From assembly GCA_964356335.1 (NCBI GenBank), contig CAYHHI010000004.1, positions 36,699-100,698 of the forward strand: 64,000 nt of DNA, read 5' to 3'. The stretch is from an uncultured bacterium. Lineage in GTDB: Bacteria; Arandabacterota; Arandabacteria; Arandabacterales; Arandabacteraceae. This document shows positions 20,858 to 50,940 of this stretch, piece by piece. The notes beneath the pieces are model-generated. The model made no database searches. It was not told where the DNA came from and worked only from the letters and a program-made list of their open reading frames with translations. The position numbers and the translations under genes are program-made. Positions within the stretch are counted from its first letter, which is position 1; each line of letters starts with the position of its first letter.

Positions 20858-23083
20858 TTATTTGAGGACAACCAGCTTATTTGCCGCGCCTGCCTTGTCG
20901 CAGGAGAATTCAACAAAATAGATGCCCGGTGATGCAGCCTTGCCGTCCTCCCCTTTAAGATCCCAGGAGGTCTCGCCCGATGTAGCAACATCGACGATCC
21001 TCACAAGCCGTCCTCCAACGTCGAAGATTGAGATCTTGCCAGTCTGACGGGCAGGTGATGAGAAGGCAACCTTGCCACCGACATGCACAGGGTTTTCAAA
21101 TCTGAGGCCCACTTCAGGCTGCACGCTCCCCGGAACGCCGGCCCCAGTAGTGGTTACCGACTCCCTTCCACTCCAGTATCCCCACTGGCCATCATCGTCC
21201 CTGGCCTTGACTTCGTAATAGAATGTCCCGATGGGCCGCGTGAGACCATAGTGAGTCTCAGTGATGGTGTTGCTCAAAACTGCCGATGAGTCAAAAACCG
21301 CGACCGGGAAGATGTCATCGATGTAGATGCCTTCCCCGAGAGTCGCACCATCGGTCTTATAGCGGAAGCGTATGGAGACCGTGGAATCAGCATACGCCCC
21401 GAGCGGGAAGATTCCCCTTACCCAACCACCCGACGAGCCCGTGATCCCGTTGCCCAGATTGCTGCCATTGGGATTGTAATTGGTGGTGATATTGCCGGGA
21501 ATAGAGTAATAGTGGGCCCCGCCGTCAGATGAGACTTGGACATACGTATAATCCCAGTCAAGCTCAATATCGTACCAGCACCAGAAGTAGAGTGTATCCC
21601 CTGAGCCGGCATCGACGCCGATCCGTATCGTGAGTCTCGCGTCGCGGTTATTGGTCTTGCCACTATAGAGGCTCTGCGTCGCGCTGTGATACCGCGTCGT
21701 CTTCAGGGAGAAGCCGTCCCTTATCCAATTGACGTCTCCACCCTCCACGTCATCCGTGACTATGGACTCGCCCGTTCGCTCCATTAGAGCATAGGTGACA
21801 GGAGGATTCGAGGGATCAGCATTGGGATCCCATGATACCGTGAATTGGCCGTCGTCATCGTCCGCCAGAGGATCGAGAATGGGCGTCGCCGGCGGCAGAA
21901 TCCGTGCGATATCATCAGCATACTCGGCGAGGAGAAGGCTTGGCTCAAGATTCTGCTGGCACAGCGTGAGTATCTGGGACGTTGGCGGCAGGAATTGGCC
22001 GCCGACTTCTATGGTATAGGAGTACGCCTTGTTCTTCAGAGTCTGTTCGCCATAGAACCAGTCATCGCTATCCCCGTTTGTGACGTAAATTGTAGTGGCC
22101 GCGGGGCCCTGCGTGTAACCGTTGAAAGAAGACATGCTGTCCCCCAGGGCATTGAACAGATCGTTGTCGGCAGTGACTGCCGCGATGTAGCCCCAGGGAT
22201 AGAGAATCAGGTTGCCGTAACTGTGGAAGGAAAGAACCGTCGAGAAGTTCTGGGCGATTCCGAAATCCCTTATGGCTTGAAGCTCCGGCTCAGAGAAGGG
22301 GCCGGTACCCCTGTAGGTTTCGTCTGAGGGAGTCGGGCTTGAGCCCTCATTGTCATAGCCCCACATGTAGCCGTAGTTCCGGTTAAGATCGACACCATAA
22401 GATCCGCCGCCATTGTTGCGGCGGTTCTTTCTCCAGTTACTGTTTACGTTCTGCTGGTACTCGCGCCCGTCGGGATTCACCGTCGGTATGATCCAGATCT
22501 CGCGGTCGTTAACCAGATTGGTTACTCTCGGGTTCGTCCCATAGTTGTCAACGAAGTAATACATGAGGTAGAGAGGGATCTCGACGGTGATGATCTCGCG
22601 CGCGTGGTGGTTGCCCATGTAGAGGACGCGAGGCTCGTTCTCAGTCGTGTTCACATTATCCGATATCTTGATTGCCCAGATATTTCGACCTTCGATGCTT
22701 GTTCCGACCGACTGTACACGACAGATGTTCGGGTGGGCATCGGCGAGACTATCCATCTCAGCGTAGGCCTCTTCATAGCTGTGGTAGGCACTCCCAATGC
22801 CAAAGACACCCATCATTTGCATATGTTTGTCGATATCGGCAATCAGGACTTCGCTGTTAGGCGCAAGTTGGATGAGCTCCTGAAGGCGCTCCGCAGGCAC
22901 GACGATGTCCGCATAACGCCTTCCACCCCAGGAAGCCACGTCATCGAATTGGGAAACGACCTTCTGAAGATGCTCTAAGTTATCAAAGTAAACCCTTATT
23001 AAGACGTCAGTTGCAAAAGTCGAGGAAGCGGAGACAGATAGGGCCAAGAGCGTCAGGCCAACCAGTGCTGTAACCTTGCGCAT
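20858..23083 (-). CDS. secreted M14 zinc carboxypeptidase with C-terminal T9SS-type (Por_Secre_tail/FlgD-Ig-like) sorting domain
   Basis: It has a signal peptide. The M14 motifs are GNHHAREI (HxxE) and SFHSYGNLILYPWGY. The C-terminus is SPGIYFVEFSCDKAGAANKLVVLK. Confidence 0.8.
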   Translation of the reverse strand: MRKVTALVGLTLLALSVSASSTFATDVLIRVYFDNLEHLQKVVSQFDDVASWGGRRYADIVVPAERLQELIQLAPNSEVLIADIDKHMQMMGVFGIGSAYHSYEEAYAEMDSLADAHPNICRVQSVGTSIEGRNIWAIKISDNVNTTENEPRVLYMGNHHAREIITVEIPLYLMYYFVDNYGTNPRVTNLVNDREIWIIPTVNPDGREYQQNVNSNWRKNRRNNGGGSYGVDLNRNYGYMWGYDNEGSSPTPSDETYRGTGPFSEPELQAIRDFGIAQNFSTVLSFHSYGNLILYPWGYIAAVTADNDLFNALGDSMSSFNGYTQGPAATTIYVTNGDSDDWFYGEQTLKNKAYSYTIEVGGQFLPPTSQILTLCQQNLEPSLLLAEYADDIARILPPATPILDPLADDDDGQFTVSWDPNADPSNPPVTYALMERTGESIVTDDVEGGDVNWIRDGFSLKTTRYHSATQSLYSGKTNNRDARLTIRIGVDAGSGDTLYFWCWYDIELDWDYTYVQVSSDGGAHYYSIPGNITTNYNPNGSNLGNGITGSSGGWVRGIFPLGAYADSTVSIRFRYKTDGATLGEGIYIDDIFPVAVFDSSAVLSNTITETHYGLTRPIGTFYYEVKARDDDGQWGYWSGRESVTTTGAGVPGSVQPEVGLRFENPVHVGGKVAFSSPARQTGKISIFDVGGRLVRIVDVATSGETSWDLKGEDGKAASPGIYFVEFSCDKAGAANKLVVLK

Positions 23084-23150
23084 GTACGTTCCTCCTCATG
23101 GTGTAAAGCAACTTCAAGGCCTCAAGCAAATACAGGGCACTTAGTGAATT

Positions 23151-23172
23151 GGGGCAGCGCACGCGCTGCCCC
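23151..23172 (-). terminator. 9-bp GC hairpin downstream of clpB
   Basis: GGGGCAGCG-cacg-CGCTGCCCC lies about 95 nt past the clpB stop. The downstream tail is A/T-rich but not a clean U-run. Confidence 0.25.
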
Positions 23173-23267: not shown

Positions 23268-25892
23268 CTACTCTCCACGAAAAGACGATACCCCCTTTTG
23301 CCCTGTCGCCTTCTTGAATTTGAGGTCGTGGGTTTTCGAGTCGAGGTCGACCTCGACGGTGTCGCCTTCGGCGAAGTCACCTTCCAACAGCTTCAAGGCA
23401 AGTGGATTCTGGATCTTCTTCTCTATGGTGCGCCTCAGCGGCCTTGCGCCGTAACTGGGATCGAAGCCATCCTTCGCGACAAACTCCTTTGCCTTGTCGG
23501 TAAGGACGATATCGAGTTTCCTCTCTTTGAGCCGATCCTTAAGCCTGTCGATCTGAAGGTCGACAATCCTCTTGATCTCATCAAGCCCAAGGCTGTTGAA
23601 GATGATGGTCTCATCAATCCTATTGAGGAACTCAGGCCGGAAGTGGCCCTGGAGAGCTTCCGTGATGCGCTTCCTCATCTCTTCGTCGTCGCCCCTCAAG
23701 TCTCTTATCCACTGGCTGCCAATGTTGGACGTCATGATAATCACGCTATTCTTGAAATCGACCGTGCGGCCCTTGCCATCGGTGAGCCGGCCGTCATCGA
23801 GAATCTGCAAAAGCAGATTGAAGACATCCTGGTGTGCCTTCTCGATCTCATCAAAAAGGATCACTGAGTAGGGCTTCCGCCGGATCGCTTCAGTCAAATA
23901 GCCACCTTCCTCGTAGCCGACATAGCCAGGTGGAGCCCCGATCAGCCTTGCGACCGAGTGCCGCTCCATGAACTCCGACATGTCGATCCACACCATCGCC
24001 CGCTCATCATCGAAAAGGAACTGGGCGAGCGCACGCGCCAGCTCGGTTTTCCCCACACCCGTGGGGCCCAGGAAAATGAACGATCCCAGGGGCCTGTTGG
24101 GATCCTGGAGGCCCGCTCTCGCCCGCCTGACGGCGTCAGACACGGCCGCAATCGCCTGATCCTGGCCAACGACCCGCAGCCTCAAGCGTTCTTCCATTTT
24201 GATCAGCTTCTCAACCTCGCCCTCGAGCATCCGCGATATGGGAATGCCCGTCCACTTCGACACGATCTCGGCGATGTCGTCCTCGTCAACTTCCTCCTTG
24301 AGCATCTTGGTGTCTTTCTGAAGCTCCTGGAGGCGCTTACTTTGGCTTTCGACCTCCTTGCTGAGAGTGACTATGCGGCTGTATCGAATCTCGGCAGCCT
24401 TCTCGAGATTGCCGGTGCGCTCGGCGGTCTCTCCCTCCTGCTTGGCCCGATCGATGTCCGCTTTGATCTTCCTGATCTTCTCGATGATATCCTTCTCGCT
24501 CTGCCAGTGTGCCTTCATGCCGCTCGACTTCTCGGTAAGGTCGGCAATCTCCTTCTCCACCTTCGCAAGCCTTTCCTTCGAGGCCTTGTCTTTCTCCTTG
24601 GAGAGCGCCTGCTTCTCGATCGTCAGTTGCATGATCCGCCGCTCGACCTCGTCGATCTCGGTAGGAAGAGAATCTATCTCGATCCTCAGGCTCGATGCAG
24701 CCTCATCAATCAGGTCAATAGCCTTATCCGGCAGGAATCTGTCGGTTATGTAGCGATGGGACAACACAGCAGCCGCGACAAGCGCCGCGTCCTTTATGGC
24801 AACACCATGATGGACTTCGTAGCGCTCCTTGAGACCCCTCAAAATCGCAATCGTGTCCTCGACGCTCGGCTCGCCGACCAGGATCGGCTGAAACCGTCTC
24901 TCGAGTGCCGGATCCTTCTCAATCCTCTTCCTGTATTCATCAATCGTCGTCGCTCCGATGGCACGAAGTTCGCCCCTTGCCAGGGCAGGCTTGAGCATAT
25001 TCGAAGCGTCCACAGCACCCTCGGCACCACCCGCTCCCACCAGGGTATGAAGCTCATCGATGAAGAGGATCACCTTGCCCTCGGCCTCCTCTATCTCCTT
25101 CAGGACCGCCTTGAGACGCTCTTCGAATTCGCCTCTGAACTTCGAACCGGCAACCAGAGCGCCAATGTCGAGTCCCACGACGCGCTTATCCCTCAAGGTC
25201 TCGGGCACGTCACCCTTCATAACTCGCTGCGCAAGCCCCTCGACAATTGCGGTCTTGCCCACTCCGGGCTCGCCGATCAGGACAGGATTGTTCTTGGTCC
25301 TCCTCGAAAGCACCTGCACCACGCGCCTTATCTCGTCATCTCTGCCGATCACGGGGTCCAGTTTGCCCTTTCTCGCCAGATCAGTGAGGTCGCGCCCGAA
25401 TTTTTGGAGAGCCTGGTACTTGTCCTCCGGAGCCTGGTCGGTCACGCGCTGGCTTCCTCGTATCTCCACTAGGGCCTTATACACGCTATCCTTGGTGACG
25501 CCGTTACGCACCAGCACCTGGCTCGTCTTGGAATCTGTATCGATCACACCCACCAGGAGATGCTCGGTGCTCAAGAACTCATCCTTGAGGCGCTCCATTT
25601 CTCTGAAGGCGTTATCGATGGCCTTCTTCAAAGCCTGGGAGAGATATGCTCCTGCCTCGGCTGCCCCGTAAACCTTGGGTAGTCTCGCGATTTCATCGCC
25701 AATCTCGCGCCTTATCGCGTCAGGGTCCGCCCCCACCTTCTTTATAATGGGCAGCACGACCCCCTCCTCCTGCGCAAGAAGTGCTGAGAGGAGATGTTCG
25801 GGAGTTATCTCCTGGTTATTGTTCTCACTTGCGATTCGCTGCGCAGCCGTCATACCTTCCTGCGCCTTTATTGTGAATCTGTCCAGCCTCAT
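23268..25892 (-). CDS. clpB: ATP-dependent chaperone ClpB (Hsp104 family)
   Basis: It has two AAA+ modules ([16 protein letters not shown]) separated by a long coiled-coil M-domain. The N-terminus [11 protein letters not shown] is typical. The start is taken as the ATG at 25892, which is SD-spaced. Confidence 0.95.
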
Positions 25893-26046
25893 ACTCATCC
25901 CTCCTCGAAACCCATCAGTCAGACGTCCTGCCCCACTGTCTTAGAATATGGTCTCCCCGTGGTCGTCGCTGCAATTCAATGTCAATTCAGGATCCTGTCA
26001 CCATCGTCTGATCTTATTGTGATTTGGCATTGTGTGACACTTGTTC

Positions 26047-26956: not shown

Positions 26957-29461
26957 CTATCTCAGCACTATCACCTTGGCCGAAGTCTTCCCCGCGATTG
27001 TGTCTATCCTGGCGAAGTAGATGCCGGGGGCTACCTTGGCGCCCTTGCTGTCGTCAGCCAGCCAGGCTATCTCATGCCTTCCGGCAGGAAGTGAGCCCTC
27101 GTACAGGGTTCTCACTACCTTGCCTTCAATGTCATAGATGCAGGCCTTGACCATGCTCTTTGAGCCAAGAGCGAAGGAGACCTTCGTCGCAGCGCCGAAG
27201 GGATTGGGATACGCGGAAACCGCAACCGGTACCACAGGCTTCCCAACCACCGAGGCCACGGTGTCAAGCTCTGCCAACTCGGCGAGTGTCGCAATACCCA
27301 TCCGCACGACGTTGGTGCAGAAGGGCATCGTCAGATTGCCCAGGGTGTCATTTACGGTGTGGTAGTAAGGATACGGCACATTCCTGTCTTCTATGGCAAG
27401 GATGGCGTCGTAGCCCGCTCCCCAGAACATGTAATGATCACTGCCACTTACGGTCGGGTCAATCAGCCTCTTGGTGAGAAGCCCAGGCACATAAGCGTTG
27501 GCGCAGTCTATCGTGAAATCGACCAACCACGTTGAGGCCTCATTCCCGATGACATCAATGTCCTCGGGAGCGACGTCGACGTAGCCAATCATGTCGAAGT
27601 TCAAGACACCGTTGATGACGTCACCCCGACCCTTGGCCTCGGCAGCATACTCGCCGCTGCCATAAAGCCCTTGCTCTTCACCTGACCAGCCGATGAACTT
27701 TATGGTCCGCTTGAAGGGCGTCAAAGCCATCACCCTCGCGGCTTCAATCGCGGCGGCAGTGCCGCTCGCATTGTCATCCGCGCCGGGGGCACGGTTGTTA
27801 AAATCAGGAGAGGTATCATCAGCATGGCCGCAGATTATGACCTGTTCGGTCGAGACCGTACCGGGCTTGGTCGCAACGATGTTCTTGAGGAACTTGAGAT
27901 TCAGAGCAGGCAGGTTGCCCCGCTGGTTCTCCCAGGTTGCGCCGCCGTCGGTGGTGTGCAGAATCGTGCCACCATAGCCGACCGCCCAGCCATCATCGTT
28001 ATTTACGAATCTCACCCGCCTCATGCCGAAAAGCGTTGAGGCGCTTTGAATCTCCCAGGTCGCGCCGCTGTCTGTGGTGTGAAGGATGGTTCCGCTCAAG
28101 CCGGCGACCCATCCCTCGAGACTGTCCACGAAGCAGACACCCTTCAGGTAAGGATCGGCGGCAGCCGGGATGGTCTGAGGAATCCAGTTCTGGCCCCCAT
28201 CAACCGTCTTCAGAACGACCCAGCCACCTCCAACGGCCCAGCCCACATTGTCGTTTATGAAATCAACATCAAGCAGGTTCTCGATGGTTCCGCTTGTCTG
28301 AGGCGACCACGAAGTGCCATCCCAGAAACGAAGCACCCCGTTCGCGCCGCAGGCCCACCCACGGTTATTGGATCTGAAATAGCAGCCATAGAGATCCTCG
28401 CCGGTTCCACTTGCGACGGTGGTCCAGTTCGTGCCGCCGTTTGTGGTCCTTTGGACTGCCCCTCCATACCCGACCGCCCAGCCGTTCTGGGAATCCAGGA
28501 AGAAGATCTCACGGAGCCAGGAAGTCGTCCCTGAGGTCTGCCCAACCCATGTAGTCCCGCCATTTGTGGTTTTGAAAATCGCACCGCCCTGCCCTGCCAC
28601 CCAGCCAGTGAGGGTATCAACGAAGCTTACCCCAAAGAAGGTCGCGCCGGCTGCACTGACCGCCTGCCTGGTCCAGGTTGCGCCCCCATCCCACGTCCTG
28701 AAGATCTTCTGCGTACTGCCGACCGCCCAGCCGTTGTCGGCATCGCAGAAATGAGTGGAATAGAAATCGAAGGAGCAAACCACGTAGTCGTGATAAGCCA
28801 CATCCAAACCGTAACTCTGAAATCTCTCATAGATATAGTTCGCGGCGTGTTCGAAACGCCAGTTATATGAATATCGCGTAAGAAGCGTATCCAGCTGCCC
28901 GTTTATGACCACAGGCTCGCGCCCGCTCATCTGCGAAATGTACTTGCTCACAGTATCACTCGAGATGCCGGCAACGATGCTCTGAATCCTGGGATTGGGA
29001 ACAACTGCCTGGGGCCCCATCTCTGGCATGGCTTTGGCCGGTTCCGGAAAGGCCCTGGGAGCGAGTCTCACCTTCGAGAAGGGAAGAAACTTGAGATCGT
29101 CAACTTCACTCCGTGCCATCTTGGTGATGTAGAGGCCCTCACCAACTTGATAGAGTACCCCGGAGTATAGCAACTCATCCCGGAAGCTCCTCGCCCTCAG
29201 AAGGAAGATCTCATCGCCTGGAAGGACAGGCGTGATTACAGAGAACTTGGCTCCCCCCTGCTCCAGTCTCGCTGCAGCCTGCTTGTCACCCTCGACCAGA
29301 TAGGAGCTGCCAAGGTCGGTAAGAAAATGGAAGCCAGCCGTGCGCATGGCCGCAACGGCAACCGGTTTCTCGACCTTTAAGACAAGTGATTCCTCATCTG
29401 CAAAGGCGAGTGCCGAAGCAAAGAACACAGCCATAAGACAAAAAAGCGCAAACTTGCGCAT
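26957..29461 (-). CDS. secreted M28-family zinc aminopeptidase with a BNR/Ycf48-like beta-propeller inserted into the peptidase domain and a C-terminal T9SS-type sorting domain
   Basis: It has a signal peptide. The M28 ligand motifs are GHADDT, DDNASG, SGEEQG, NFDMIG and SDHYMF. Seven DGG(A/T)TW-type propeller blades lie between the first M28 segment and NIVATKPG. The C-terminus is APGIYFARIDTIAGKTSAKVIVLR. Confidence 0.75.
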   Translation of the reverse strand: MRKFALFCLMAVFFASALAFADEESLVLKVEKPVAVAAMRTAGFHFLTDLGSSYLVEGDKQAAARLEQGGAKFSVITPVLPGDEIFLLRARSFRDELLYSGVLYQVGEGLYITKMARSEVDDLKFLPFSKVRLAPRAFPEPAKAMPEMGPQAVVPNPRIQSIVAGISSDTVSKYISQMSGREPVVINGQLDTLLTRYSYNWRFEHAANYIYERFQSYGLDVAYHDYVVCSFDFYSTHFCDADNGWAVGSTQKIFRTWDGGATWTRQAVSAAGATFFGVSFVDTLTGWVAGQGGAIFKTTNGGTTWVGQTSGTTSWLREIFFLDSQNGWAVGYGGAVQRTTNGGTNWTTVASGTGEDLYGCYFRSNNRGWACGANGVLRFWDGTSWSPQTSGTIENLLDVDFINDNVGWAVGGGWVVLKTVDGGQNWIPQTIPAAADPYLKGVCFVDSLEGWVAGLSGTILHTTDSGATWEIQSASTLFGMRRVRFVNNDDGWAVGYGGTILHTTDGGATWENQRGNLPALNLKFLKNIVATKPGTVSTEQVIICGHADDTSPDFNNRAPGADDNASGTAAAIEAARVMALTPFKRTIKFIGWSGEEQGLYGSGEYAAEAKGRGDVINGVLNFDMIGYVDVAPEDIDVIGNEASTWLVDFTIDCANAYVPGLLTKRLIDPTVSGSDHYMFWGAGYDAILAIEDRNVPYPYYHTVNDTLGNLTMPFCTNVVRMGIATLAELAELDTVASVVGKPVVPVAVSAYPNPFGAATKVSFALGSKSMVKACIYDIEGKVVRTLYEGSLPAGRHEIAWLADDSKGAKVAPGIYFARIDTIAGKTSAKVIVLR

Positions 29462-29711: not shown

Positions 29712-29939
29712 TCAGGCCCTACGCTTGCGATGCCCGCCGCCAGCCATCGCCTTAGCGATTCTTGTCCGGAGCTTTATCACGGCAGACTTAGTCAACTTGT
29801 CGTCTCGCCACTTGCGATAGATCTTGATGATCCTTCCGTGGGTATCAACGTACATGCGGCATTTCTCGCAATCCACCATGTGGCGCGTAATCTGCTCACA
29901 TATGGACTCACGTGCTTCACCCTCGAGGAAGTCCGTCAT
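29712..29939 (-). CDS. zinc-dependent anti-sigma factor (ZAS family)
   Basis: It has Cx5Hx3Cx2C (SICEQITRHMVDCEKC) and lies immediately downstream of the ECF sigma gene. The start could instead be the TTG at 29990, which overlaps the sigma stop by 8 nt. Confidence 0.55.
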   Translation of the reverse strand: MTDFLEGEARESICEQITRHMVDCEKCRMYVDTHGRIIKIYRKWRDDKLTKSAVIKLRTRIAKAMAGGGHRKRRA

Positions 29940-29982
29940 ATGAGGCAGTAGACCTTTACAGCGACCCTTGCATCGGCGCATG

Positions 29983-37244: not shown

Positions 37245-38951
37245 CTACTTAAGAATAAGCACTTTGGCCCTGCTGGTGCCGGGAACCTCAACGAAAACGA
37301 TGCCAGGCGCGATGCCGGGAAGGGCCGAATTGAGATTGATCTCGGTGAGCCCGGAAGGCCTCAGATCGAATTCACGAATAAGCCTTCCGGCAACATCGTA
37401 GATCCTCACAGGGCCTCGGGCTGGCGCGCCGGCATAACCTATGTAGAAACTCGCCCGGCAAGGATTGGGGTAGACCTCGAGTCTCGAGACTGGGATCCTT
37501 CCGGATGCAATGCCACTCGGCACATACCCTGAAGCGTCATACGCCTGGAGGATGCCCCAGCCATAAAGCGTGTCGGGATTTGATGACCGTGTGCCTGTAG
37601 CCATTATCGCTTCAGTCACATTGGCAGGCAGCCAGTTGGGGTGCTTCTCGAGAACGAGGGCAATTGCACCGGCAGTGAGCGGCGTGGCGAAGGAAGTGCC
37701 GCTCCCTCTCCTGTAACTAGTTGGGCCGGTGGTGTTAGCTATATAATCTGCCTGACCCATCGCCATGATGGTAGGCTTGATCCTTCCGTCGTAGGTTGGA
37801 CCCTGGGATGACCAAGAGGACCTCACGCCCGTCGAATCCACGGAACCGACCGTGACGACGCTGTCACCATCCGCCGGCGCCATGATGTATTTCCACTCAG
37901 AGGCGCCGGCATTACCGGCAGCGTTTACGACCACAATCCCATTCAGGACTGCTCTGTCGGCGGCGTTGGTGATGGGTGCGGTATCGCCGTCCATGTCCGC
38001 GTAGGTATACCAATCTGAGTAACACAGCGAACTGGATATTATCTGAGCTCCAAGGCTGTCCGCCCATTCGGCTGCGGCTATCCACCAATCCTCTTCAACG
38101 GGCTGCTCGTCTGCCATGTCTTCGGTTTTCGCAAGAATGTACTCGGCATCAAAGGCTGCACCCATCATCGTTCCCGGCGTATTCCCCGCGAGCAGCGAAA
38201 GACACATGGTGCCGTGATCATGTTGGCCGGACGGGTCTCCGGGCTGGTTGGCAGTGGTGTCGTCATTGTTTATGAAGTCATGCTCGGCTATCACATTGAG
38301 GTCCGTGAAGGTCTCGTGCTCCAGCCAGAAGCCGGTATCGAAGATCGCTACCTTGACACCCGTCCCCGTATAGCCCTCATTGTGGAGCTGAGGAACCTGG
38401 ATCAGGGTGAGCTGTCTCCACGCCTGGCCATACTGGTAAAGAGCTCCGATGCCCTTCTCCGAAGCGTCCCAGGTCACAGGCTCGGGAGATCCCGCTTTGC
38501 CGCTCACCCTCCGCAAAGATTTCACGAAGGGAAGGCCGGCGATATGTTCTATCTGGTCGCGCGTAGCAACAATGCTAGCGGCATTGAGCCACCTGGAGAA
38601 AGTTCTGAACTCCACACCTTCGGCCTTCAGGGCATCGATGTAAGGTTTGTAGAGCGGGAGATCGGATTCGTCAAAGGGCTGCGCGGGCCGTGCCCTCAGA
38701 CGCCTCTCCACGGCCCTGGGATCATAGGATGAGGCGATCTCGCTAAGCCGTGCCTGGACTTCATTCAGAGCATAATCACCCTTGTCCCTGAAGAAAACCC
38801 AGACCACAAGCTCATCCCCGCTCGGAGCAGTCTTGAGCCATTCACTAACCGAGGGTGAGACCCCTGTGAGGCCGAAAGAAGGCGTTCCGAGAGTAAAGGC
38901 AGTGAAGACAAGAGCCATAACTGAAAGTGGAATCAATTCACGTGGCTTCAT
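37245..38951 (-). CDS. secreted subtilisin-like serine protease (S8) with C-terminal T9SS-type sorting domain
   Basis: Its catalytic triad contexts are FDTGF (Asp), HGTMCLSLLAGN (His) and GTSFATPLTAGAIAL (Ser). The signal peptide is MKPRELIPLSVMALVFTAFTLG, and the ATG at 38951 has AAAGGAG upstream. The C-terminus is APGIVFVEVPGTSRAKVLILK. Confidence 0.85.
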   Translation of the reverse strand: MKPRELIPLSVMALVFTAFTLGTPSFGLTGVSPSVSEWLKTAPSGDELVVWVFFRDKGDYALNEVQARLSEIASSYDPRAVERRLRARPAQPFDESDLPLYKPYIDALKAEGVEFRTFSRWLNAASIVATRDQIEHIAGLPFVKSLRRVSGKAGSPEPVTWDASEKGIGALYQYGQAWRQLTLIQVPQLHNEGYTGTGVKVAIFDTGFWLEHETFTDLNVIAEHDFINNDDTTANQPGDPSGQHDHGTMCLSLLAGNTPGTMMGAAFDAEYILAKTEDMADEQPVEEDWWIAAAEWADSLGAQIISSSLCYSDWYTYADMDGDTAPITNAADRAVLNGIVVVNAAGNAGASEWKYIMAPADGDSVVTVGSVDSTGVRSSWSSQGPTYDGRIKPTIMAMGQADYIANTTGPTSYRRGSGTSFATPLTAGAIALVLEKHPNWLPANVTEAIMATGTRSSNPDTLYGWGILQAYDASGYVPSGIASGRIPVSRLEVYPNPCRASFYIGYAGAPARGPVRIYDVAGRLIREFDLRPSGLTEINLNSALPGIAPGIVFVEVPGTSRAKVLILK

Positions 38952-38976: not shown

Positions 38977-39003
38977 CTACGATTTCGGCCCGGGCTCAAG
39001 GCT

Positions 39004-40631: not shown

Positions 40632-40632
40632 G

Positions 40633-42053: not shown

Positions 42054-43538
42054 TTATCTTACTACAACAAACCTTCCCGTCCTGCTGCTTCCCCCGGCGT
42101 CGACCCTGTAAATGTATATCCCGCTTACCACCTGCTTACCGTCACTGTCCCTGAGGTTCCAATCAGCTGAGCCCTTCTGCGTTTCGTTGTCGATATTGAA
42201 GCCGGGCCTGACCGTATCTATGTAACCTCCGGATGCATCATATATCCTTATGGTTGCCTTTTCGGGTACATTCACGAACTGCAGCTTGGCCTCCCCCTGC
42301 TCCCAGCCAGCCCTGAAACGATAAGGATTGGGAACCACAAAGACATCGTCGACTGTTCGACCCTTCGGAGAGGCGGTCGGATACACCTCAGTCCAGTTTA
42401 TCGGACTCATGATGAGTTCATAACCGCTAGACCAATCGTAGGTCACGACAGCGTAATCATAAGGGAAGCCATTGAGCAACACATAGGCACTTGGGTCAGG
42501 CGTGACGCCACGCCCGCTGGCCCTTATGCCCTTGTCAATGAAGTACCTCTCACCGCCAGGATCCTGCTTGCCGAATGAATCTGCAAAGAATCCGGGATCC
42601 TCACAGCGCCTCTTATCCACAGCCACCTTATACTGGCCCACGGGATCGCTGGACGTGGGGGGCCTATCTTCAACAGACCGGCGCAGAACCAGATACCCTT
42701 CAAAGGTGGAGGCCTTGATCTTGAATGCATCGGCCGGAGGATTGTCGCCTGGGCCCGCCTTCCCGAAGGGTATCCTGACATCGACCGAAAAACTCCGACC
42801 TACCTGGAACTGCCCCGCCGGGAAGGAGACCCTCAGCCCCTTGCTCACCCCGACGCTCTGGCCCGACCGCTCGACCACGATCGAACTATCTTCACCAAGA
42901 CTGGCTGCCGACCAGCTGAGAGTGATCGCGGCATTTCCTTCGGGGCCGAGCTCGCCCCCAGAGACACACGTGAACTCAAGGACCACTACTGTGTCCGCGA
43001 GTCTCCCACCTCTGTATATGCCGTCAAAAGTGGGAATGGGACAATCCTGCCAACCTTCGGGATGAAACCTGAATAGGCTGTAAGAAGGGATTGATATCTT
43101 TATGCCGTCTGAAAGGTCATAGTCATGATCGGTCGAATCCACCGTGATTGTCTTTTCGCTTTGGGACTTAGTATTCCAGTCACTCACGTACAACCAGGAA
43201 AGAAGCACCCGATCGGGAGTGGAACTCACGGTGATATTGTAGTCATGATCACAGGCTCCAACATAAAAGCTTTCATCGCTCACGGTTATAGTCGCTTTGC
43301 CTCTCCACGGGGTCTCACGTGTACCCAGCGACGGCTGGTAAACAAAAACCAGGCTTTCAGGCTGAAGATCCTTCCACTGAATCTTCACTATCCTGCCGTC
43401 GCTACGGGTGGTATCGCCTTCAGTGATATTCACAATGTGTGGCGCTTTGAGAGTGATGCCTGCCCCACAGACGCTAACGCAGAGAAGTAAGCACCCAAAC
43501 CAAAGTGCATAGACAAAACGCCTCCCGCCCTTCTGCAT
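42054..43538 (-). CDS. secreted hypothetical protein with C-terminal T9SS-type sorting domain
   Basis: Its signal peptide is MQKGGRRFVYALWFGCLLLCVSVCGAG, from the ATG at 43538 with GGAGG upstream. Its C-terminus is VVPNPYRF...IRIYDASGGYID...SGIYIYRVDAGGSSRTGRFVVVR. Confidence 0.6.
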   Translation of the reverse strand: MQKGGRRFVYALWFGCLLLCVSVCGAGITLKAPHIVNITEGDTTRSDGRIVKIQWKDLQPESLVFVYQPSLGTRETPWRGKATITVSDESFYVGACDHDYNITVSSTPDRVLLSWLYVSDWNTKSQSEKTITVDSTDHDYDLSDGIKISIPSYSLFRFHPEGWQDCPIPTFDGIYRGGRLADTVVVLEFTCVSGGELGPEGNAAITLSWSAASLGEDSSIVVERSGQSVGVSKGLRVSFPAGQFQVGRSFSVDVRIPFGKAGPGDNPPADAFKIKASTFEGYLVLRRSVEDRPPTSSDPVGQYKVAVDKRRCEDPGFFADSFGKQDPGGERYFIDKGIRASGRGVTPDPSAYVLLNGFPYDYAVVTYDWSSGYELIMSPINWTEVYPTASPKGRTVDDVFVVPNPYRFRAGWEQGEAKLQFVNVPEKATIRIYDASGGYIDTVRPGFNIDNETQKGSADWNLRDSDGKQVVSGIYIYRVDAGGSSRTGRFVVVR

Positions 43539-43578
43539 ACATACCTCCAGCCATAGAAACGCGATGTATTTCCTGAGA

Positions 43579-45837
43579 CTAGAAAGCCCTGGGCTTCCCT
43601 TCATCGAATAATTCCAAGAGATTCCGTATCAGAGTCTTGACCTCGTCGTGGTTGAAGAACCACGGAGGGATTCCGATATAGGCTGCATACCCCCGCCCCG
43701 TCTTGCTATCGCCAGGAACATACACTCCAATCCACTTACCCTGCAACCTCATGCCAGAGGGGGTCATGATCTCCCTCCCGCACTCTGGATCTCCTATGCG
43801 CTGCCCCTTATCATTGACCGGTACAACCGAGTAAATCGGACGGACATCGATACTGTCATCGTATCTAAGCTCTGTTATGTAAAAAGCATTGTCAACTCTG
43901 CCCGGCCAGCCGGCGACACCAGGAATCCGATCTGTTGTGACGGGATCCCAGTACTGCGTTGTGTCATCCAGAGGCTTCGCTGTATACTTAGTTGTACACG
44001 GGTACATGGTCTTGAAGCTAACCCTGGGATTGCCGATCAACATCTTCGCTATTCCGAACGTCTCCCAGTTGAAGTTGTAGATCAAGGTTGAGTCAACGGG
44101 GTTCACCCTCGGGGTGAAATCCAAGCTGGTCTGGGAACCTCTGGTTCCGCGAGGAGGCGTCTTGTCGGGCCAGAACATGCAGGAGTAAATCGGATCCAGA
44201 CCTATCACGATTATATTCCCGCCAACCTTGACGTAGGAATTGAGGTAATTGCCCCTGTTGAAGCAAACCTCGGTGAGATGAATATCTGGGCTCTCTGTAT
44301 CTTGATCAGCAAGCCAGATCACGGTTGAGGCATCCGCCACCCGCCTGATCGGCACCTCGTTCTTGTAATCGCTGCCCGTATCAAACTCCTGCCAATTGTA
44401 ACCCTTGAGGATATCGGCCCACAGGCTGTCACTGGCTCGTTCATAGTAGAGGTAGGGGTTTCCCAGCCACTTGGCATGATCGTCGTCAACAAGATAAATG
44501 AACTTCTCCTTGCCTCGAGGGCCTTTGAGCACCTCCAAGCGAAACTCACAATGGCTTGTATCTCTATTCAGGTCTCTGAGCTCGACAACAAAGTTGTGAG
44601 TACCAAGACTGGGAATAAACGGTTTGCCGTCCGAGGGATATCTCACGAGCCACTCGACACCTGTTGTCCTTTCCCTGAGAGGGTCGACACTGGTCCAGTA
44701 GTTCCATGTTGACGTTGCGGGATCTTCAGAATCGTCGAAGTAATAACGACATGCAGCCACCAGTTTCCCCTGGCTCCGATCCTCAGACCCCCAGAACTTG
44801 AACGATACGGGCGTACCCTCAAACAACCCGGCAACATTGCTCAAATACCCTTGCCTGTCGTCGCTCGACCTCACCCCCAATGCGCCTGCATCAATGTTGG
44901 TGGTGACACCCGCACCCTGAGTGATGACGAGCAACCTGACCCAATTATTGTCGCTGTTATAAGTTCCATAAAGAGACTTGGGCAGCACAGCACCACCCTC
45001 GTCCTTACAGGTGACAAACGCCATCACCTTCTCTCCCTTAACTGCATAGGTAGAGAGATTGAGGTCCTTCACGTACGTGCAGTCTGCCGGAACCCACTCA
45101 CTCCAATAACTGACTGCAGGCGCCGCATAGGGCTTGTGCCTAGGGTCGGTGTCGACCACGTCGAGACTGTCTAACCGCGACGCAGTCCCGGGAGGTGTCG
45201 GCCATTTGCCGCCGGGCAATTCCTTCTCAGGAATGAGAATATACTTGAAAAGCATCTTCGAAACATCGCCATCCGAGTCCTCTCCACGCCACTCGATATA
45301 AACGTGAGGAGGAGAGAGACAGGGGACAGTCGGTATCTTCACTGGAATCGTTATCTTTGCCTTAGGAAGCACATTGGACGCCTGAAAGAAAACACTGGCT
45401 CCTGCAGAATCCACTGCCCCATCATTGTCAAGAGCCCTGACGATTATGCCCCAGTAGGAGAGGCCAAATCTGACAGTACCCACAGAAGAACAGCACGAAT
45501 CGGCCGTAACCACAAAAGTGCTTTCGGTTCTTGCAGTCTCAGCCCACTCGAGCTTATCGCGATCAAGATTATCAAGCGCTTCCCTGCTCAGGCCCTTGAC
45601 AGTCGCCACTTCATACCTTGCAATGGTCCCGTCCTCATCCGTACCGTACCAGTATGCTTGAACCTTGAAATAGGTCCTTGCTTCCTCCTTCGGCCCGAAA
45701 GAGATGAAGGTGTGCGGGGGGATATTGGTTACTCTTGTTCCGCCAGCCTTTTCGCCGCAGCCGCAGAACAAGAGTGCGAGACAGCATAATGCAATCCAGA
45801 CGATGCCAGCCGAGCCCGTGTACTTCCTGGTACTCAT
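43579..45837 (-). CDS. large lipoprotein, hypothetical (mosaic; shares its N-terminal repeat domain with the next gene and a central domain with the 1105-aa protein)
   Basis: It has a signal plus Cys-rich lipobox-like LLFCGCG. It has repeated PxxxFxWxGxDxDGxVxxYxY units. The segment FIYLVDDDHAKW...DASTVIWLADQD...GGNIIVIGLD parallels LLVDGHGRNLYDW...DYDAVVWFTGP...SGCVVLCGD in 47623..50940. Its ATG overlaps the upstream stop (ATGA). Confidence 0.6.
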   Translation of the reverse strand: MSTRKYTGSAGIVWIALCCLALLFCGCGEKAGGTRVTNIPPHTFISFGPKEEARTYFKVQAYWYGTDEDGTIARYEVATVKGLSREALDNLDRDKLEWAETARTESTFVVTADSCCSSVGTVRFGLSYWGIIVRALDNDGAVDSAGASVFFQASNVLPKAKITIPVKIPTVPCLSPPHVYIEWRGEDSDGDVSKMLFKYILIPEKELPGGKWPTPPGTASRLDSLDVVDTDPRHKPYAAPAVSYWSEWVPADCTYVKDLNLSTYAVKGEKVMAFVTCKDEGGAVLPKSLYGTYNSDNNWVRLLVITQGAGVTTNIDAGALGVRSSDDRQGYLSNVAGLFEGTPVSFKFWGSEDRSQGKLVAACRYYFDDSEDPATSTWNYWTSVDPLRERTTGVEWLVRYPSDGKPFIPSLGTHNFVVELRDLNRDTSHCEFRLEVLKGPRGKEKFIYLVDDDHAKWLGNPYLYYERASDSLWADILKGYNWQEFDTGSDYKNEVPIRRVADASTVIWLADQDTESPDIHLTEVCFNRGNYLNSYVKVGGNIIVIGLDPIYSCMFWPDKTPPRGTRGSQTSLDFTPRVNPVDSTLIYNFNWETFGIAKMLIGNPRVSFKTMYPCTTKYTAKPLDDTTQYWDPVTTDRIPGVAGWPGRVDNAFYITELRYDDSIDVRPIYSVVPVNDKGQRIGDPECGREIMTPSGMRLQGKWIGVYVPGDSKTGRGYAAYIGIPPWFFNHDEVKTLIRNLLELFDEGKPRAF

Positions 45838-47405
45838 CTTCCGCCTCCCGACGAGTTTGTACTCGAAACAAACACAGAATCACGCATTGAGTCAGACCTG
45901 GTCAACAAGTAGTCGCCGTTATACGCCTCGAGCTTGAACCTGTGCCACCCCGACGCAAGTCCTTCAACCTCAACCCCCGGCACGTACAAACCCTGCCTGT
46001 CCTTAGCAGTCACCTGTATCCAGGGACCATCATCAACTTTGTATCGGTATGTGACAAGGGCTTGCTCGCCACTGCTTCCCCGGTTGATATCCTGATCCAC
46101 GTCACGACATTTCCAGTCGAACTTCACCTTTCCTGGGCCAATGACCATGAGGGTATCCCAGGTTATCACCGGCGCATAGTTCACCTTGAAGGTGAAGAGA
46201 GCAGGAGTGCCGTCCACCTTACCCAAGTCGTCCCTTGCTCTCACCAGCAGGGCTAGCTCGTAATCTGTATCAAGATTGGGGTTGTTCTGGCCTGTGGCAG
46301 TTACGTCACAGAAGGCTGTGTCGCACGGCGTCCCTACCCAAGGCTGCTTCGGGTCGGCACCAGATTGGATCAGAGTGCCTCGGATGCTCCATCTAAACGA
46401 GTCTGGACGTGCCCCATCTTTATCCCAGCCATGGAACCTGAACCGTAACTGGCCGAAGTGGTACGCGACCGCGGTCGTGTCGCTCGGGTAGATCTGCTTC
46501 TCGGCAAGAGGAATGCCGCCCTGACCACTTTGACCTGACCCCCTGAATGTCCAAACGCCATCGATATATGTGTTGGGATCATAGTTTACGACAAACCTTG
46601 CGATCTTCTCATCACTCTTTGCACCGGCATCGTCCACGGCGACCAGCCTGAACTCATGGAAACCCAGCCAGACATCGCTGCTTTCGATTATGCAAGGCCA
46701 ATACCTGTACTCCGTGCTGTGGGTCTCAAAGGGGACTGTGACCTCATTGCCCGAGTCAAGCCGATATCTCCATTCTTGTACGGATCCATCAGGGTCGCGT
46801 CCTTGCCAATCAAATCTTACCACTATCGGCGGAGTGGTCATATCGCAAGGACCGGGATACCTGAGGTTGATCGCAGGAATCGTGTCGCCTTTATCCGGAG
46901 GGACGCGAGGAATAGTATCGATGCTGCTTGATATGAGAACTTGGATCTCGGGAAGAGCGTAGTCAATAGCCATGAAGTTGGTCGCTGCGGGCTTCGGATC
47001 TGCCTTGCCCTCGTTATCGACGGCAGCAACGTATAGGCTGTGACTTCTCGAATTGGGCCTGTCAGCTCGAAACACAAAGAGGCTCTCTGTAGCGTCCGTG
47101 GTTCTCCAGGGAAGACTCAAGAGATACTGGTCAATGTCCTCCTGGTTCCTGAGCCCACTGTATAGCTCATCCTCAGATACTGATGCCACCCTGTATGCCA
47201 CAACCACACCGTCTTCATCGTATCCCGTCCAGTGCACGAGGTACTTATGGAAAACCTTGTCGTCCATGCCCGGCGCAACCGAAAGTACGGTCTCGGGAGC
47301 AGTATTCTTGTCATATCTTGTGACGTTCTCCTCCTCGCAACCGACGAGGCCTATGAGGCCCAGCGCCACTGCAAAACCCACGAGGAGGCTCCTTCTTGTC
47401 ACCAT
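45834..47405 (-). CDS. lipoprotein with four tandem WxGxDxDG beta-sandwich-like repeats
   Basis: It has lipobox LVGC. The ATG at 47405 has GAGGAG 7 nt upstream. Its repeats include HWTGYDEDGVVVAYRV, FDWQGRDPDGSVQEWRYRL, FRFHGWDKDGARPDSFRWSI and FDWKCRDVDQD...YRYKV. Confidence 0.6.
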   Translation of the reverse strand: MVTRRSLLVGFAVALGLIGLVGCEEENVTRYDKNTAPETVLSVAPGMDDKVFHKYLVHWTGYDEDGVVVAYRVASVSEDELYSGLRNQEDIDQYLLSLPWRTTDATESLFVFRADRPNSRSHSLYVAAVDNEGKADPKPAATNFMAIDYALPEIQVLISSSIDTIPRVPPDKGDTIPAINLRYPGPCDMTTPPIVVRFDWQGRDPDGSVQEWRYRLDSGNEVTVPFETHSTEYRYWPCIIESSDVWLGFHEFRLVAVDDAGAKSDEKIARFVVNYDPNTYIDGVWTFRGSGQSGQGGIPLAEKQIYPSDTTAVAYHFGQLRFRFHGWDKDGARPDSFRWSIRGTLIQSGADPKQPWVGTPCDTAFCDVTATGQNNPNLDTDYELALLVRARDDLGKVDGTPALFTFKVNYAPVITWDTLMVIGPGKVKFDWKCRDVDQDINRGSSGEQALVTYRYKVDDGPWIQVTAKDRQGLYVPGVEVEGLASGWHRFKLEAYNGDYLLTRSDSMRDSVFVSSTNSSGGGR

Positions 47406-47558
47406 AAGCACACTCCTCAATCCTGCGTGATTAAGTTCCTTGCGTCTAAGGAATTTGTGTCTATGCTACAGCATAGCTGGCCCCACGATAAGACACAGCC
47501 GAGAAACTATAACAACGCATTCCTGCCTTGTCAACACCAAAACTGGTCAAGCCTGGGC

Positions 47559-47597
47559 AATAAAGAACCGGGGCTTCCACTGGTATGAAAGCCCCGG
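47559..47597 (-). terminator. intrinsic terminator downstream of the 1105-aa surface protein gene
   Basis: The minus strand reads GGGGCTTTCATACCAGTGGAAGCCCCGG with a 9-bp stem, followed by TTCTTTATT. It lies about 30 nt after the stop at 47623. Confidence 0.45.
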
Positions 47598-47622
47598 CCT
47601 CAATGCCTTGTAGGGTCTACTT

Positions 47623-50600
47623 CTACTTCACAACCAACATCTTCTTCACGGCTGAATACTTATCAGCTTCCATCTTGTAGAAGTACACTCCACTCGATAC
47701 ACGCTCGCCAACCTGGTTCTTTCCGTCCCAGGCTACCGAGTGCTTACCAGCCTTCATCTGCTCATCCTTCAGTACCTGCACCAACTGCCCCATCGCGTTA
47801 TAGACCTTGATGGAAACCTTGCTGGCACTGGCGACCTCAAAGTCTATCTTGGTCCCAGTCGACAGCGGGTTTGGTCCGTTCTGCCTGAGTCCCCAGACAT
47901 ACGCAACAGGACTGGTGGGACCCGGCACATTGGCCATCGCATTCGGAACGATACCAAAGAGGTTGTAAAGGATGGTCCTTAGCAACTCGACGCGGCCAAA
48001 GTAGTAACCTGGCGCGAAGTCAGGTGCTGGAGCAGGAGTCACTCCAGTGCACAAAGTCCTCGCGTGGTTGACTGTGGCGCACAGGTCGAAGTTGACATAC
48101 ACGCACCGTCCCTTGCCATTCTGGTACTCAGTGTAGATCGCTCCATCAGCGAGAGGAACCCCGATGGGATTGGTTACCCGGAGAAACTGCTGTGCCGTGT
48201 AGCCGGGCTTCGGGCTCGGGCTGGTCAGAACGTAGCTCATGTCCTTCAGATACGGACACTCCCTGTAAATCACGACCGTATCCAACGCCGTCGTAGGAAT
48301 GTTCACGGCTGAACCCCTCACGTTGACCGTAGCCGCCGCATCCATGTAAACAAACGGCAAGGTAAACCCTGCTTCCATCTCCTTCAGGTAGTCGGTCCCC
48401 ATGATGCCGTTCAAGAACTCGCCGCCAAGCGAATCCTCGCCATTGCCACCCTCAGCCTGAGTCGCCATATCGTAGGCCAGCCTGTCACCGCACAGCACCA
48501 CACACCCACTGTCCGCAAGATAAGCCCTCAGGGCTAACTGGGCTTCCTTGTCAAACAGGTAGTTGGAGAAGTACGGCCCAGTGAACCACACAACAGCATC
48601 ATAATCCGAGAACGTAATCGGATGTATGTGCTGGTTCGAACCGGCACCACTGATGTCGAACTTGTCGTAGTAGCAATACCCGGCATCAGCCAGCGTCCTC
48701 TCGTAGATGTCCTCGAGAGGCATCGTGTTGTCAAGGTCGGTCAAGCAAGGCGACCAGTCATAGAGATTCCTGCCATGTCCATCAACAAGCAGAATCTTCT
48801 GACCCTCGCCGACCCCCGGGGCAACTATCGGGAGGATTGAGAACCCCCAATAATCGTCCTTCGTCCAATTGTGGGCCGAGTTCTTCGGATCCGCTCTGGC
48901 TGGGAAGTACGCCTGGTTACCCAGGTTGTCCTGAGCCAGGACATAATACAGGATCTCGCTGCCGACCGTCCATGCTATAGCACCAGGACTGAAGTCACCT
49001 GCCTGGACAGTCCCATAGTACTCGCCACCAAGAGCAAGGTTCAACGGATCAGCGGGCACCGCCAGAGTCATTGTCTTCTCAATCCAGGTAGCGCCATTGG
49101 TGATGCTAGCCTTGATCTTGACGGATGCCAGATTGTTCTTGTCCGTGCAGTTGATGTAGAGCTGCTGCCCCTTGGGAAGTATCGGCGCCGGGGGAGAAGC
49201 TCCCGAGTACTTGTTCAGCGTGTCGGTCTCATAGGTATCAAAGAACGAGTTGTACGCCTGAGCTACCTGTGGGAAGAACGTATCGTGGAGAATGTCAATC
49301 CCACGAGCGCTGAACTGGGTTGCCGTGCCATCGAAGAAGCCGATGGAAACGTTGTCAATCAGGTTCTCGGTGTCCTTGTGCTTGCCATAGCACATGTCAC
49401 CAGGGTTGGAGGTATCCAGCAGATCAAATCCAAACTGCATGGAGTCGTTGTTTGCCCCGTAGAACTGGGTGACATTATCCCAGTCATCGAAGTTCCAGAA
49501 GAAACAGCCGCCATACATGATGTACCCGTCGATGTTGATCCATGGACACCATGTCTGGTTGACCTTGTCGTAGAACCTCACCTGGGTATCCGTGTAGTCG
49601 CAGGTGATGTCCTTGCCGCACATGAACTCGTCATACTGGACTATACAGCCCGTGTTGGCAAGCTTGACCTTGGGCGTAAGGAGCCTGTAGAAGAAGCCCT
49701 GCCTCTGGGGTGAGCCAGGAGGGAAGGCATTCTCAGGTCTCGCGCGCCAGACCCACGAGGAGTCCAACAGACAGGTCGTGCGGGCGCCCCCATCACCACC
49801 CTCATAGGGCGGATCAGGGTCATGCACCAAGTGCCATCCCTGCGCTACACCAGAAGGCTGCTGGAGACTCCAGTACTGGGGAAGCGCTCCGAAAACACTG
49901 CAGAGCTCGAAGTCCTGAGTGTACGCGCTGCCCGCATCACCAACCATCCACACGTTGTCAACAAAGGCAGCTCCGTCGGTATCGCCTCTGCCATCCATGT
50001 CACTCCACGCTCCGTCAGACTTGAATCTGAATCTGATCTTCGGCGCGTTGGTGACCGTGCCCCACATGGCAGGAGTGATCACTCCCATGTAGGCCGGAAT
50101 GCCAGGAGTCCCCCTCTGCTGCCAGTTGCAGTTGGCAAGCCTGTTCACATCCGTGTTGCCCCAGTTGTCAGGATTCGGCTTCGAGGGAGCACCACAGACA
50201 CCGCCCGGGTTGTTGCTCGTCGCGTTGAACATGGCGAGCGTGACCCACGCGGTGGTGGCAGGCGGACCTGCTACACCCTGCTGGTAGTCCACATAGAGGT
50301 AATCGTACTTGCACTCGGTATCGTACCTGGGATCGAAGTACAGTGTACAGCCCCCCGCCACGTTAAACGACGACGGCAGGTCGAGCTCCACAATGCAGTT
50401 CCACTGGTTACCATAACCAGGCGGATTGATCCAGGTACCGCACTCGACAGGCTTACCGGGCGGCGCGCCCCAAACCGCGGCCGAACCGCACCACAGTGCG
50501 CGGGTACCCGTATAGCCCCCGGGCGCCGGCACAGTGCGGTAGCTGTCGACGTGCCAATAGTTGACATTGGTCTGCGAAGGCAGACTACGAATATCAACGT

Positions 50601-50940
50601 ACTTGAAGCAGTTGGTGATGAACGGTGCTACTGTTCCGCATGTATCACCGACTCCTCCCTCCACGCACCAGGTCTGGGTAGGACCGGGCCCACCCGTCGC
50701 CTCACCACCGTGTCCTCCAAGCGGATCGCCAGGGCAGCGGGTACTATTAGCATGTACCTCTACCCATGTCGTATTTCCCGCCTGGACCATCACGAATGGC
50801 ATGGCTAAGGGCATCCCTCCCACCGCGTTAGCGGGCGGCAGAAGCGGCTTTGCCGGTTCCTGCATACCTAGTGCAACGGAGGCGAGCCCCATTACAAGGA
50901 CCCCCACTGCCACGATAGATACTGCTCTAAATCTCATCAT
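47623..50940 (-). CDS. very large secreted protein with a ThuA/class-I-glutamine-amidotransferase-like central domain and C-terminal T9SS-type sorting domain
   Basis: Its signal peptide is MMRFRAVSIVAVGVLVMGLASVALG, from the ATG at 50940 with GGAGGG upstream. Its central segment is GQKILLVDGHGRNLYDW...DYDAVVWFTGP...ADSGCVVLCGDRLAY. Its C-terminus is SGVYFYKMEADKYSAVKKMLVVK. Confidence 0.65.
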   Translation of the reverse strand: MMRFRAVSIVAVGVLVMGLASVALGMQEPAKPLLPPANAVGGMPLAMPFVMVQAGNTTWVEVHANSTRCPGDPLGGHGGEATGGPGPTQTWCVEGGVGDTCGTVAPFITNCFKYVDIRSLPSQTNVNYWHVDSYRTVPAPGGYTGTRALWCGSAAVWGAPPGKPVECGTWINPPGYGNQWNCIVELDLPSSFNVAGGCTLYFDPRYDTECKYDYLYVDYQQGVAGPPATTAWVTLAMFNATSNNPGGVCGAPSKPNPDNWGNTDVNRLANCNWQQRGTPGIPAYMGVITPAMWGTVTNAPKIRFRFKSDGAWSDMDGRGDTDGAAFVDNVWMVGDAGSAYTQDFELCSVFGALPQYWSLQQPSGVAQGWHLVHDPDPPYEGGDGGARTTCLLDSSWVWRARPENAFPPGSPQRQGFFYRLLTPKVKLANTGCIVQYDEFMCGKDITCDYTDTQVRFYDKVNQTWCPWINIDGYIMYGGCFFWNFDDWDNVTQFYGANNDSMQFGFDLLDTSNPGDMCYGKHKDTENLIDNVSIGFFDGTATQFSARGIDILHDTFFPQVAQAYNSFFDTYETDTLNKYSGASPPAPILPKGQQLYINCTDKNNLASVKIKASITNGATWIEKTMTLAVPADPLNLALGGEYYGTVQAGDFSPGAIAWTVGSEILYYVLAQDNLGNQAYFPARADPKNSAHNWTKDDYWGFSILPIVAPGVGEGQKILLVDGHGRNLYDWSPCLTDLDNTMPLEDIYERTLADAGYCYYDKFDISGAGSNQHIHPITFSDYDAVVWFTGPYFSNYLFDKEAQLALRAYLADSGCVVLCGDRLAYDMATQAEGGNGEDSLGGEFLNGIMGTDYLKEMEAGFTLPFVYMDAAATVNVRGSAVNIPTTALDTVVIYRECPYLKDMSYVLTSPSPKPGYTAQQFLRVTNPIGVPLADGAIYTEYQNGKGRCVYVNFDLCATVNHARTLCTGVTPAPAPDFAPGYYFGRVELLRTILYNLFGIVPNAMANVPGPTSPVAYVWGLRQNGPNPLSTGTKIDFEVASASKVSIKVYNAMGQLVQVLKDEQMKAGKHSVAWDGKNQVGERVSSGVYFYKMEADKYSAVKKMLVVK

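Follow-up and report, generated by a model that had tools for sequence, protein, structure and literature searches.

The locus described here raises the question whether five secreted proteins of quite different architecture, encoded by an uncultured bacterium, end in the same C-terminal domain, and whether this domain is an address tag for secretion by the type IX system (T9SS). The five genes lie on a stretch of 64,000 nucleotides (GenBank assembly GCA_964356335.1, contig CAYHHI010000004.1, positions 36,699 to 100,698), referred to below as the window. An earlier inspection of the letters and their translations, carried out without database searches (the sequence-only reading), had pointed to five open reading frames (ORFs) between positions 20858 and 50940 that share a C-terminal sorting domain of ~85 amino acids. 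All five ORFs were found, on the minus strand; they are designated A to E and are listed here with their tails:

Gene A, 20858..23083, minus strand: secreted M14 carboxypeptidase of 741 aa that also has an InhA-like MAM domain and ends in the tail
Tail of A, 20861..21097, minus strand: residues 663-741
Gene B, 26957..29461, minus strand: secreted protein of 834 aa with a BNR/Ycf48-like beta-propeller, an M28 aminopeptidase domain and the tail
Tail of B, 26960..27211, minus strand: residues 751-834
Gene C, 37245..38951, minus strand: secreted subtilase of family S8, 568 aa when read from an ATG at 38951, ending in a divergent tail
Tail of C, 37248..37475, minus strand: marginal member
Gene D, 42054..43538, minus strand: secreted protein of 494 aa with the tail but no known N-terminal domain
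Tail of D, 42057..42341, minus strand
Gene E, 47623..50940, minus strand: secreted multi-domain protein of 1105 aa with jelly-roll/MAM-like beta-sandwiches, an alpha/beta domain and the tail
Tail of E, 47626..47874, minus strand: best-scoring tail and the one that was modelled

The N-terminal families that had been proposed for A, B and C agree with Pfam. Gene A matches Peptidase_M14 (PF00246, 1.3e-79) and the InhA-like MAM family (PF20773, 3.7e-28), B combines PF14870 (3e-34) with Peptidase_M28 (PF04389, 1e-29), and C matches Peptidase_S8 (PF00082, 6.4e-42); the ORF of C extends to a TTG at 38999, from which the protein would have 584 aa. The Pfam scan gave no family for D and E outside the tail, which is the sole Pfam match of the E family (~190 matches of ~1080 aa, with 47-68% identity). 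The start codon of D was confirmed by a database entry (P0121) that is an exact match to the 494-aa protein; its family includes ~180 matches of 470-480 aa. The predicted structure of E (pLDDT, the predicted local distance difference test score, of 76.6) retrieved stacks of beta-sandwiches and MAM-immunoglobulin (Ig) modules with Foldseek. In all five tailed proteins a basic N-terminus is followed by a hydrophobic stretch, a predicted Sec signal that was recognised by inspection only and not by a signal-peptide predictor; the N-terminus of A (MRKVTALVGLTLLALSVSASSTFA) resembles a Sec signal, and those of B and C (MKPRELIPLSVMALVFTAFTLG in C) are likewise signal-like.

The tails were compared through a profile of the last 95 residues of A to E, searched against the 597 six-frame ORFs of the window; it matched only A to E, and the next best ORF had an E-value of 0.81. 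A fairer comparison comes from leave-one-out profiles, which are built without the tail being scored. They recovered E (6.8e-18), B (7.7e-16), A (7.7e-14) and D (7.1e-9) and, far more weakly, C (2e-3), whereas the best non-member ORF had an E-value of at least 0.9. Judged by these profiles, the shared tail is real for A, B, D and E and marginal for the subtilase C; the five-member group that had been proposed is thus a group of four with a marginal fifth. The motif that had been written down for the tail was reproduced in an alignment of 16 tails from Candidatus Eisenbacteria, the lineage of the window (see below). It has an invariant N-P, an invariant G before strand 4, an invariant G-x-Y-F, a near-invariant W, and a final K-x-V-V-L-K/R; the W-D-G segment of the motif, however, is missing from C. 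The glycine in the turn between strands 3 and 4 (G41) is invariant in these 16 and also in 48 aligned tails, and the aligned tails end in the pattern K/R-x-V/I/L-V/I/L-V/I/L-K/R. The tail is kept in orthologues whose overall identity is 45-60%. C is a weak member, because it has no W-D-G segment and its tail reaches none of the curated cutoffs; its orthologue in the related locus L081 has no precomputed tail family, and its tail may be a degenerate or a classical-type C-terminal domain (CTD).

The sequence-only reading had assigned the tail to the Por_Secre_tail/FlgD-Ig-like domains, and this assignment holds: TIGR04183, PF18962 and PF13860 all match, and no unrelated family was matched by the tails among the Pfam and NCBIfam hidden Markov models (HMMs). 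The bit scores, with the curated cutoffs, were as follows:

TIGR04183 (cutoff 23 bits): A 22.7, B 31.6, C 18.9, D 25.4, E 37.2
PF18962 (cutoff 27 bits): A 17.9, B 22.3, C 18.1, D 13.8, E 32.4
PF13860 FlgD_ig (cutoff 27 bits): A 23.1, B 32.7, C no match, D 17.8, E 46.2

The TIGR04183 cutoff is reached by the tails of B, D and E and missed by C and, by 0.3 bits, by A, which is nonetheless clearly homologous in the leave-one-out comparison, where C is marginal. The only solved relatives of the E tail that were found by sequence alone were FlgD Ig-like domains; therefore, the fold was compared as well. The modelled E tail is a compact Ig-like beta-sandwich that can be superposed on solved CTDs, and it is closest to the C-terminal domains of PorU and PorZ. 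When the D family was aligned with Bacteroidota PorZ (hhalign), the tails aligned with a probability of 95.7% (E 8.3e-9), and the PorZ tails carry the same motif, W-(N/D)-G...G-x-x-V-x-x-G-(I/V)-Y. In mutagenesis experiments, the glycine of the L-beta3-beta4 loop and the lysine of the C-terminal motif were needed for secretion of RgpB and PorU (PMC11285876); the pre-strand-4 glycine and the terminal lysine of the Eisenbacteria tails correspond to these residues. On this evidence the tails are probably T9SS type A CTDs, in a FlgD-Ig-like variant of the PorU/PorZ type, a variant frequent outside the Bacteroidota, and the proteins that carry them would be exported via a translocon of the SprA/PorV type.

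The likeness to known type A CTDs (TIGR04183/PF18962), such as those of Porphyromonas gingivalis RgpB, Tannerella forsythia mirolase and Flavobacterium johnsoniae NucA, extends to the length of ~75-90 aa, the location at the extreme C-terminus of Sec-signal proteins, and the attachment to unrelated catalytic domains; shared structural features are the Ig-like beta-sandwich, P-N-P at the start, D-x-x-G in the turn before strand 4, the G-x-Y-F in strand 6 and the final K-x-hydrophobic-hydrophobic. In contrast to these type A CTDs, the tails described here score near or below the curated cutoffs and belong to a member of the Eisenbacteria, not of the Bacteroidota; compared to the classical, cleaved CTDs of Bacteroidota cargo, they have an extra segment, W-D-G-x-D-x-x-G-x-x-V, after strand 5. 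The CTDs of PorU (6za2) and PorZ (5m11) remain uncleaved in P. gingivalis and occur on proteins of the machinery, whereas the same tail type is found here on ordinary cargo enzymes, and D and E are, in their N-terminal parts, unrelated to PorZ and PorU. The Ig-like domain of the flagellar hook cap protein FlgD (PF13860; PDB 3osv, 3c12, 4zzf) differs in its setting: in the present case it is a tag at the end of secreted enzymes, with neither a FlgD N-terminal domain nor a flagellar context. An identification of the tails as FlgD proper was rejected, as the FlgD equivalogs scored 16-38 bits, over the Ig part only, against cutoffs of 230-383. The type B CTD (CHU_C; TIGR04131, PF13585) is a C-terminal T9SS signal domain as well; it is matched only by E, below the cutoff (CHU_C 26.4 bits vs. 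27), and no PorP/SprF-like partner gene is adjacent.

The position of the tail is as constrained as its sequence. It ends at the stop codon in all five window proteins and in every orthologue. A scan of JGI metagenomes with the consensus tail yielded 80 loci (576 kb) with 113 tailed ORFs, 33 of which lay in the flanks of a locus and were not the seed match; the tail was single-copy in 113/113 and lay within five residues of the stop codon in 105/113. Close relatives of the tail were named from KSB1, Latescibacteria, Gemmatimonadota and Ignavibacteriaceae, and the matches outside Eisenbacteria in the examined loci came from Cloacimonadota and Gemmatimonadales.

Alternative explanations differ in how much of this evidence they can accommodate. 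That the shared signature is a chance or compositional likeness of unrelated beta-rich protein ends is conceivable only for C, and its probability is close to nil; pairwise identity among the tails is only 21-33%, and the leave-one-out value of C is only 2e-3, but the other four tails range from 1e-8 to 1e-17 against at least 0.9 for other ORFs, independent curated HMMs match the same segments, and orthologues keep them. For A, B, D and E, chance is already refuted at the level of these sequence comparisons. The tail could instead be a generic FlgD-type Ig-like module, structural or binding to cell surfaces or ligands, that stands last by chance in proteins leaving the outer membrane by another route. 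A caution comes from an exhaustive HMMER search of 1.84 billion representatives, which found ~520,000 clusters with the tail domain, the top scorers having up to 19 internal tandem copies; in giant proteins of 1,000-7,600 aa (P0370-P0405) from this search, the Ig-like domain is repeated in tandem inside the chain, up to 15-19 times. Because the fold also serves as a plain internal repeat, a domain match alone does not prove the use of T9SS. Yet a generic module would not be so constrained as to lie, in single copy, at or near the stop codon of 105 ORFs out of 113, nor would it be expected in terminal position in all Eisenbacteria orthologues; in addition, the last strand of the tail (K-x-V-V-L-K/R) and its glycine before strand 4 correspond to residues that T9SS export requires, the top structural match by both methods was a T9SS CTD and not FlgD, and one tail on five unrelated cargo architectures is what would be expected of a transferable address tag. 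A generic module is therefore regarded as unlikely.

The tail might also be a true sorting signal whose reader is not the canonical T9SS of the Bacteroidota but a reduced or strongly divergent system, perhaps one without the PorU/PorZ attachment complex or with lineage-specific partners; this would fit the W-D-G...G-x-x-V hairpin that the cargo tails carry after strand 5 (C being without W-D-G), a segment confined in P. gingivalis to the CTDs of PorU and PorZ, which are not cleaved, and it would fit the outcome that no PorU or PorZ orthologue emerged among the tail-bearing proteins checked (E, D, the 700-aa proteins and the C25 proteins discussed below). CTDs are known from the literature to be incompatible even between species of Bacteroidota. 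However, the absence was checked on only a very small part of any genome, studies in P. gingivalis have shown that the hairpin does not determine whether a CTD is cleaved or retained, and T9SS components have been reported in other FCB (Fibrobacteres-Chlorobi-Bacteroidetes) phyla; a divergent or reduced reader is regarded as unlikely, to the same degree as a generic module. The interpretation of the tails as T9SS type A CTDs, exported by a translocon of the SprA/PorV type that we infer for this genome, is preferred. Homology, fold, terminal position and conserved motifs of the tails, together with the lineage of the organism, are shown by the analysis, whereas each of the transport steps is an inference.

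None of the ~48 genes of the window, all of which were scanned, encodes a T9SS component. Profiles of PorV and PorL, based on Bacteroidota sequences from the supplement of PMC7323717, had no match in the window or in 162 loci (~1.9 Mb in all), and an NCBIfam scan of 20 non-syntenic ORFs from Eisenbacteria loci gave no T9SS family; these negatives are weak, because machinery genes account for less than 1% of a genome. A search of a literature library found nothing linking Eisenbacteria or neighbouring candidate phyla to T9SS.

Several tailed proteins were considered as components of the machinery and rejected. Gene E has the size of PorU and a tail, but it is not a PorU sortase by any of the comparisons made: it has no C25 domain (PF01364), the histidine considered for the Cys/His dyad is not conserved, the whole-chain TM-score to 6za2 is 0.09, and the PorU model NF033707, which has a cutoff of 420 bits, reaches 30 bits through the tail alone. 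An identification of D as PorZ, a protein with two beta-propellers and a CTD, was rejected since the alignment is limited to the tail; the PorZ model NF052228 gives 24 bits, in the tail region, against a cutoff of 260, and hhalign aligns the last ~90 columns alone. The 700-766-aa proteins that were found together with D, one of them labelled Eisenbacteria, also matched PorZ through the tail only. A less clear case is that of half-size PorZ-like proteins of ~470 aa, each with one regulator-type propeller and a tail, which occur in two other loci (L140:8828-10252 and L106:1262-2665) and reach 106-109 bits against the PorZ cutoff of 260; these scores reflect propeller repeats that are found also in the adjoining sensor-like proteins of 1020 aa.

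The proposal that the tails mark protease cargo, in the manner of the gingipains, fits the results, as three of the five window proteins are peptidases and tailed gingipain-type C25 peptidases occur on related metagenome contigs. One such contig (L108:984-12390) encodes three gingipain-type C25 peptidases in tandem, with Propeptide_C25, Peptidase_C25 and, in each of them, the Ig domain C25_C; the same tail subtype stands at the end of two of these proteins, and the third runs off the end of the contig. A fourth tailed C25 protein is found on another contig (L149:6377-10279). As candidates for PorU these C25 proteins scored 54-64 bits against the cutoff of 420; this low PorU score, together with a propeptide and a C25_C domain of the gingipain type, makes a role as cargo more likely.

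An affiliation with the FCB group had been suggested for the organism, and this is roughly right. The window encodes a ClpB (23268-25898) with 78-90% identity to metagenome-assembled genomes (MAGs) labelled Candidatus Eisenbacteria, and Eisenbacteria have FCB affinity; formally, the NCBI taxonomy lists Candidatus Eiseniibacteriota under the candidate phyla and not in the FCB group. The gene order of tailed M28 peptidase, ClpB and tailed M14 peptidase is kept in Eisenbacteria MAGs (L001, L006, L010), with the tails retained; the orthologue of A adjoins ClpB and keeps its tail in L001, L003-L006 and L010, and tailed orthologues of B are present in L001, L006, L008 and L010. Between the tailed M28 gene B and clpB lies a gene for a rhomboid-family intramembrane protease (26047-26742, minus strand). 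Immediately upstream of B and co-oriented with it (29715-30591, minus strand) are an extracytoplasmic function (ECF) sigma factor of 202 aa and a 92-aa ORF that could be an anti-sigma factor; this arrangement recalls, without demonstrating it, the control of T9SS genes by an ECF sigma factor (SigP) in P. gingivalis.

Genes D and E belong to a second conserved neighbourhood, the other members of which carry no tail:

Two lipoprotein-like genes (752 aa and 528 aa), 43579..47420, minus strand: between E and D; no tail
PD40-repeat lipoprotein-like gene (648 aa), 51341..53287, minus strand: upstream of E; no tail; PF07676 at 2.7e-10

The five genes form a cluster on the minus strand (42054-53287) in the order PD40 lipoprotein, E, the 528-aa and 752-aa lipoproteins, and D; order and gene sizes are kept in the related loci L081 and L082, where D is only 43% identical, and the PD40 gene stands upstream of the E orthologue in L081 as well. 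The 752-aa and 528-aa proteins are paralogous over their N-terminal 200 aa (26% identity, E 3e-15) and matched no Pfam or NCBIfam family; beyond the PD40 repeats and the tails, no known domains were found in the cluster. It may represent a surface assembly specific to Eisenbacteria. An arrangement in which Eisenbacteria are without a canonical T9SS, and in which some other, so far undescribed system for export or anchoring reads the tail, with this cluster as a candidate part or dedicated client, is given only a slight chance next to the preferred interpretation of the tails as T9SS type A CTDs. Downstream of D, a DUF4438 gene (39708-40652, minus strand) is separated from it by an aminotransferase gene (40633-41967); in L081 and L082, the DUF4438 gene directly adjoins the D orthologue.

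Elsewhere in the window, a trio of genes for a thiolase, a DUF35/ChsH2-type oligonucleotide/oligosaccharide-binding (OB) fold protein and a 3-hydroxy-3-methylglutaryl-CoA (HMG-CoA) synthase-like protein (10616-13391, minus strand), with an adjoining enoyl-CoA hydratase gene, shows the same arrangement as the archaeal acetoacetyl-CoA thiolase/HMG-CoA synthase complex. Proteins with an ARPP-1 domain and a VWA domain are encoded directly upstream of a histidine kinase/response regulator pair (15377-20763, plus strand); the preceding 614-aa ORF (13465-15306) matched no family.

If the tails act as proposed, each protein would be carried across the inner membrane by Sec via its N-terminal signal peptide, the cargo would fold in the periplasm, and a T9SS translocon of the SprA/Sov type in the outer membrane, together with PorV, would then recognise the C-terminal beta-sandwich; the cargo would finally be released or anchored at the cell surface, its tail either being kept or being removed by a PorU-type sortase. 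The predicted cargo set comprises one carboxypeptidase (M14), one aminopeptidase (M28), one endopeptidase (S8) and two conserved proteins to which no function is assigned. For this bacterial group, the tail match as such is ordinary: NCBI lists members of the D and E families from Candidatus Eisenbacteria bacterium under 'T9SS type A sorting domain-containing protein' and 'FlgD immunoglobulin-like domain containing protein', and the match will come as no surprise to a T9SS specialist, because automated annotation at NCBI has already given the orthologues the T9SS type A sorting-domain label. If the interpretation is correct, this cargo set would give Eisenbacteria a protein-degrading toolkit at the cell surface or in the extracellular space, and Candidatus Eisenbacteria, a phylum without a cultured member, would join the phyla that use type IX secretion. 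Outside the Bacteroidota, the usual cargo tag would then be the variant with the hairpin, which in P. gingivalis is kept for PorU and PorZ, and such hairpin-bearing cargo tags would bear on the evolution of this signal from, or alongside, the Ig domains of the FlgD type.

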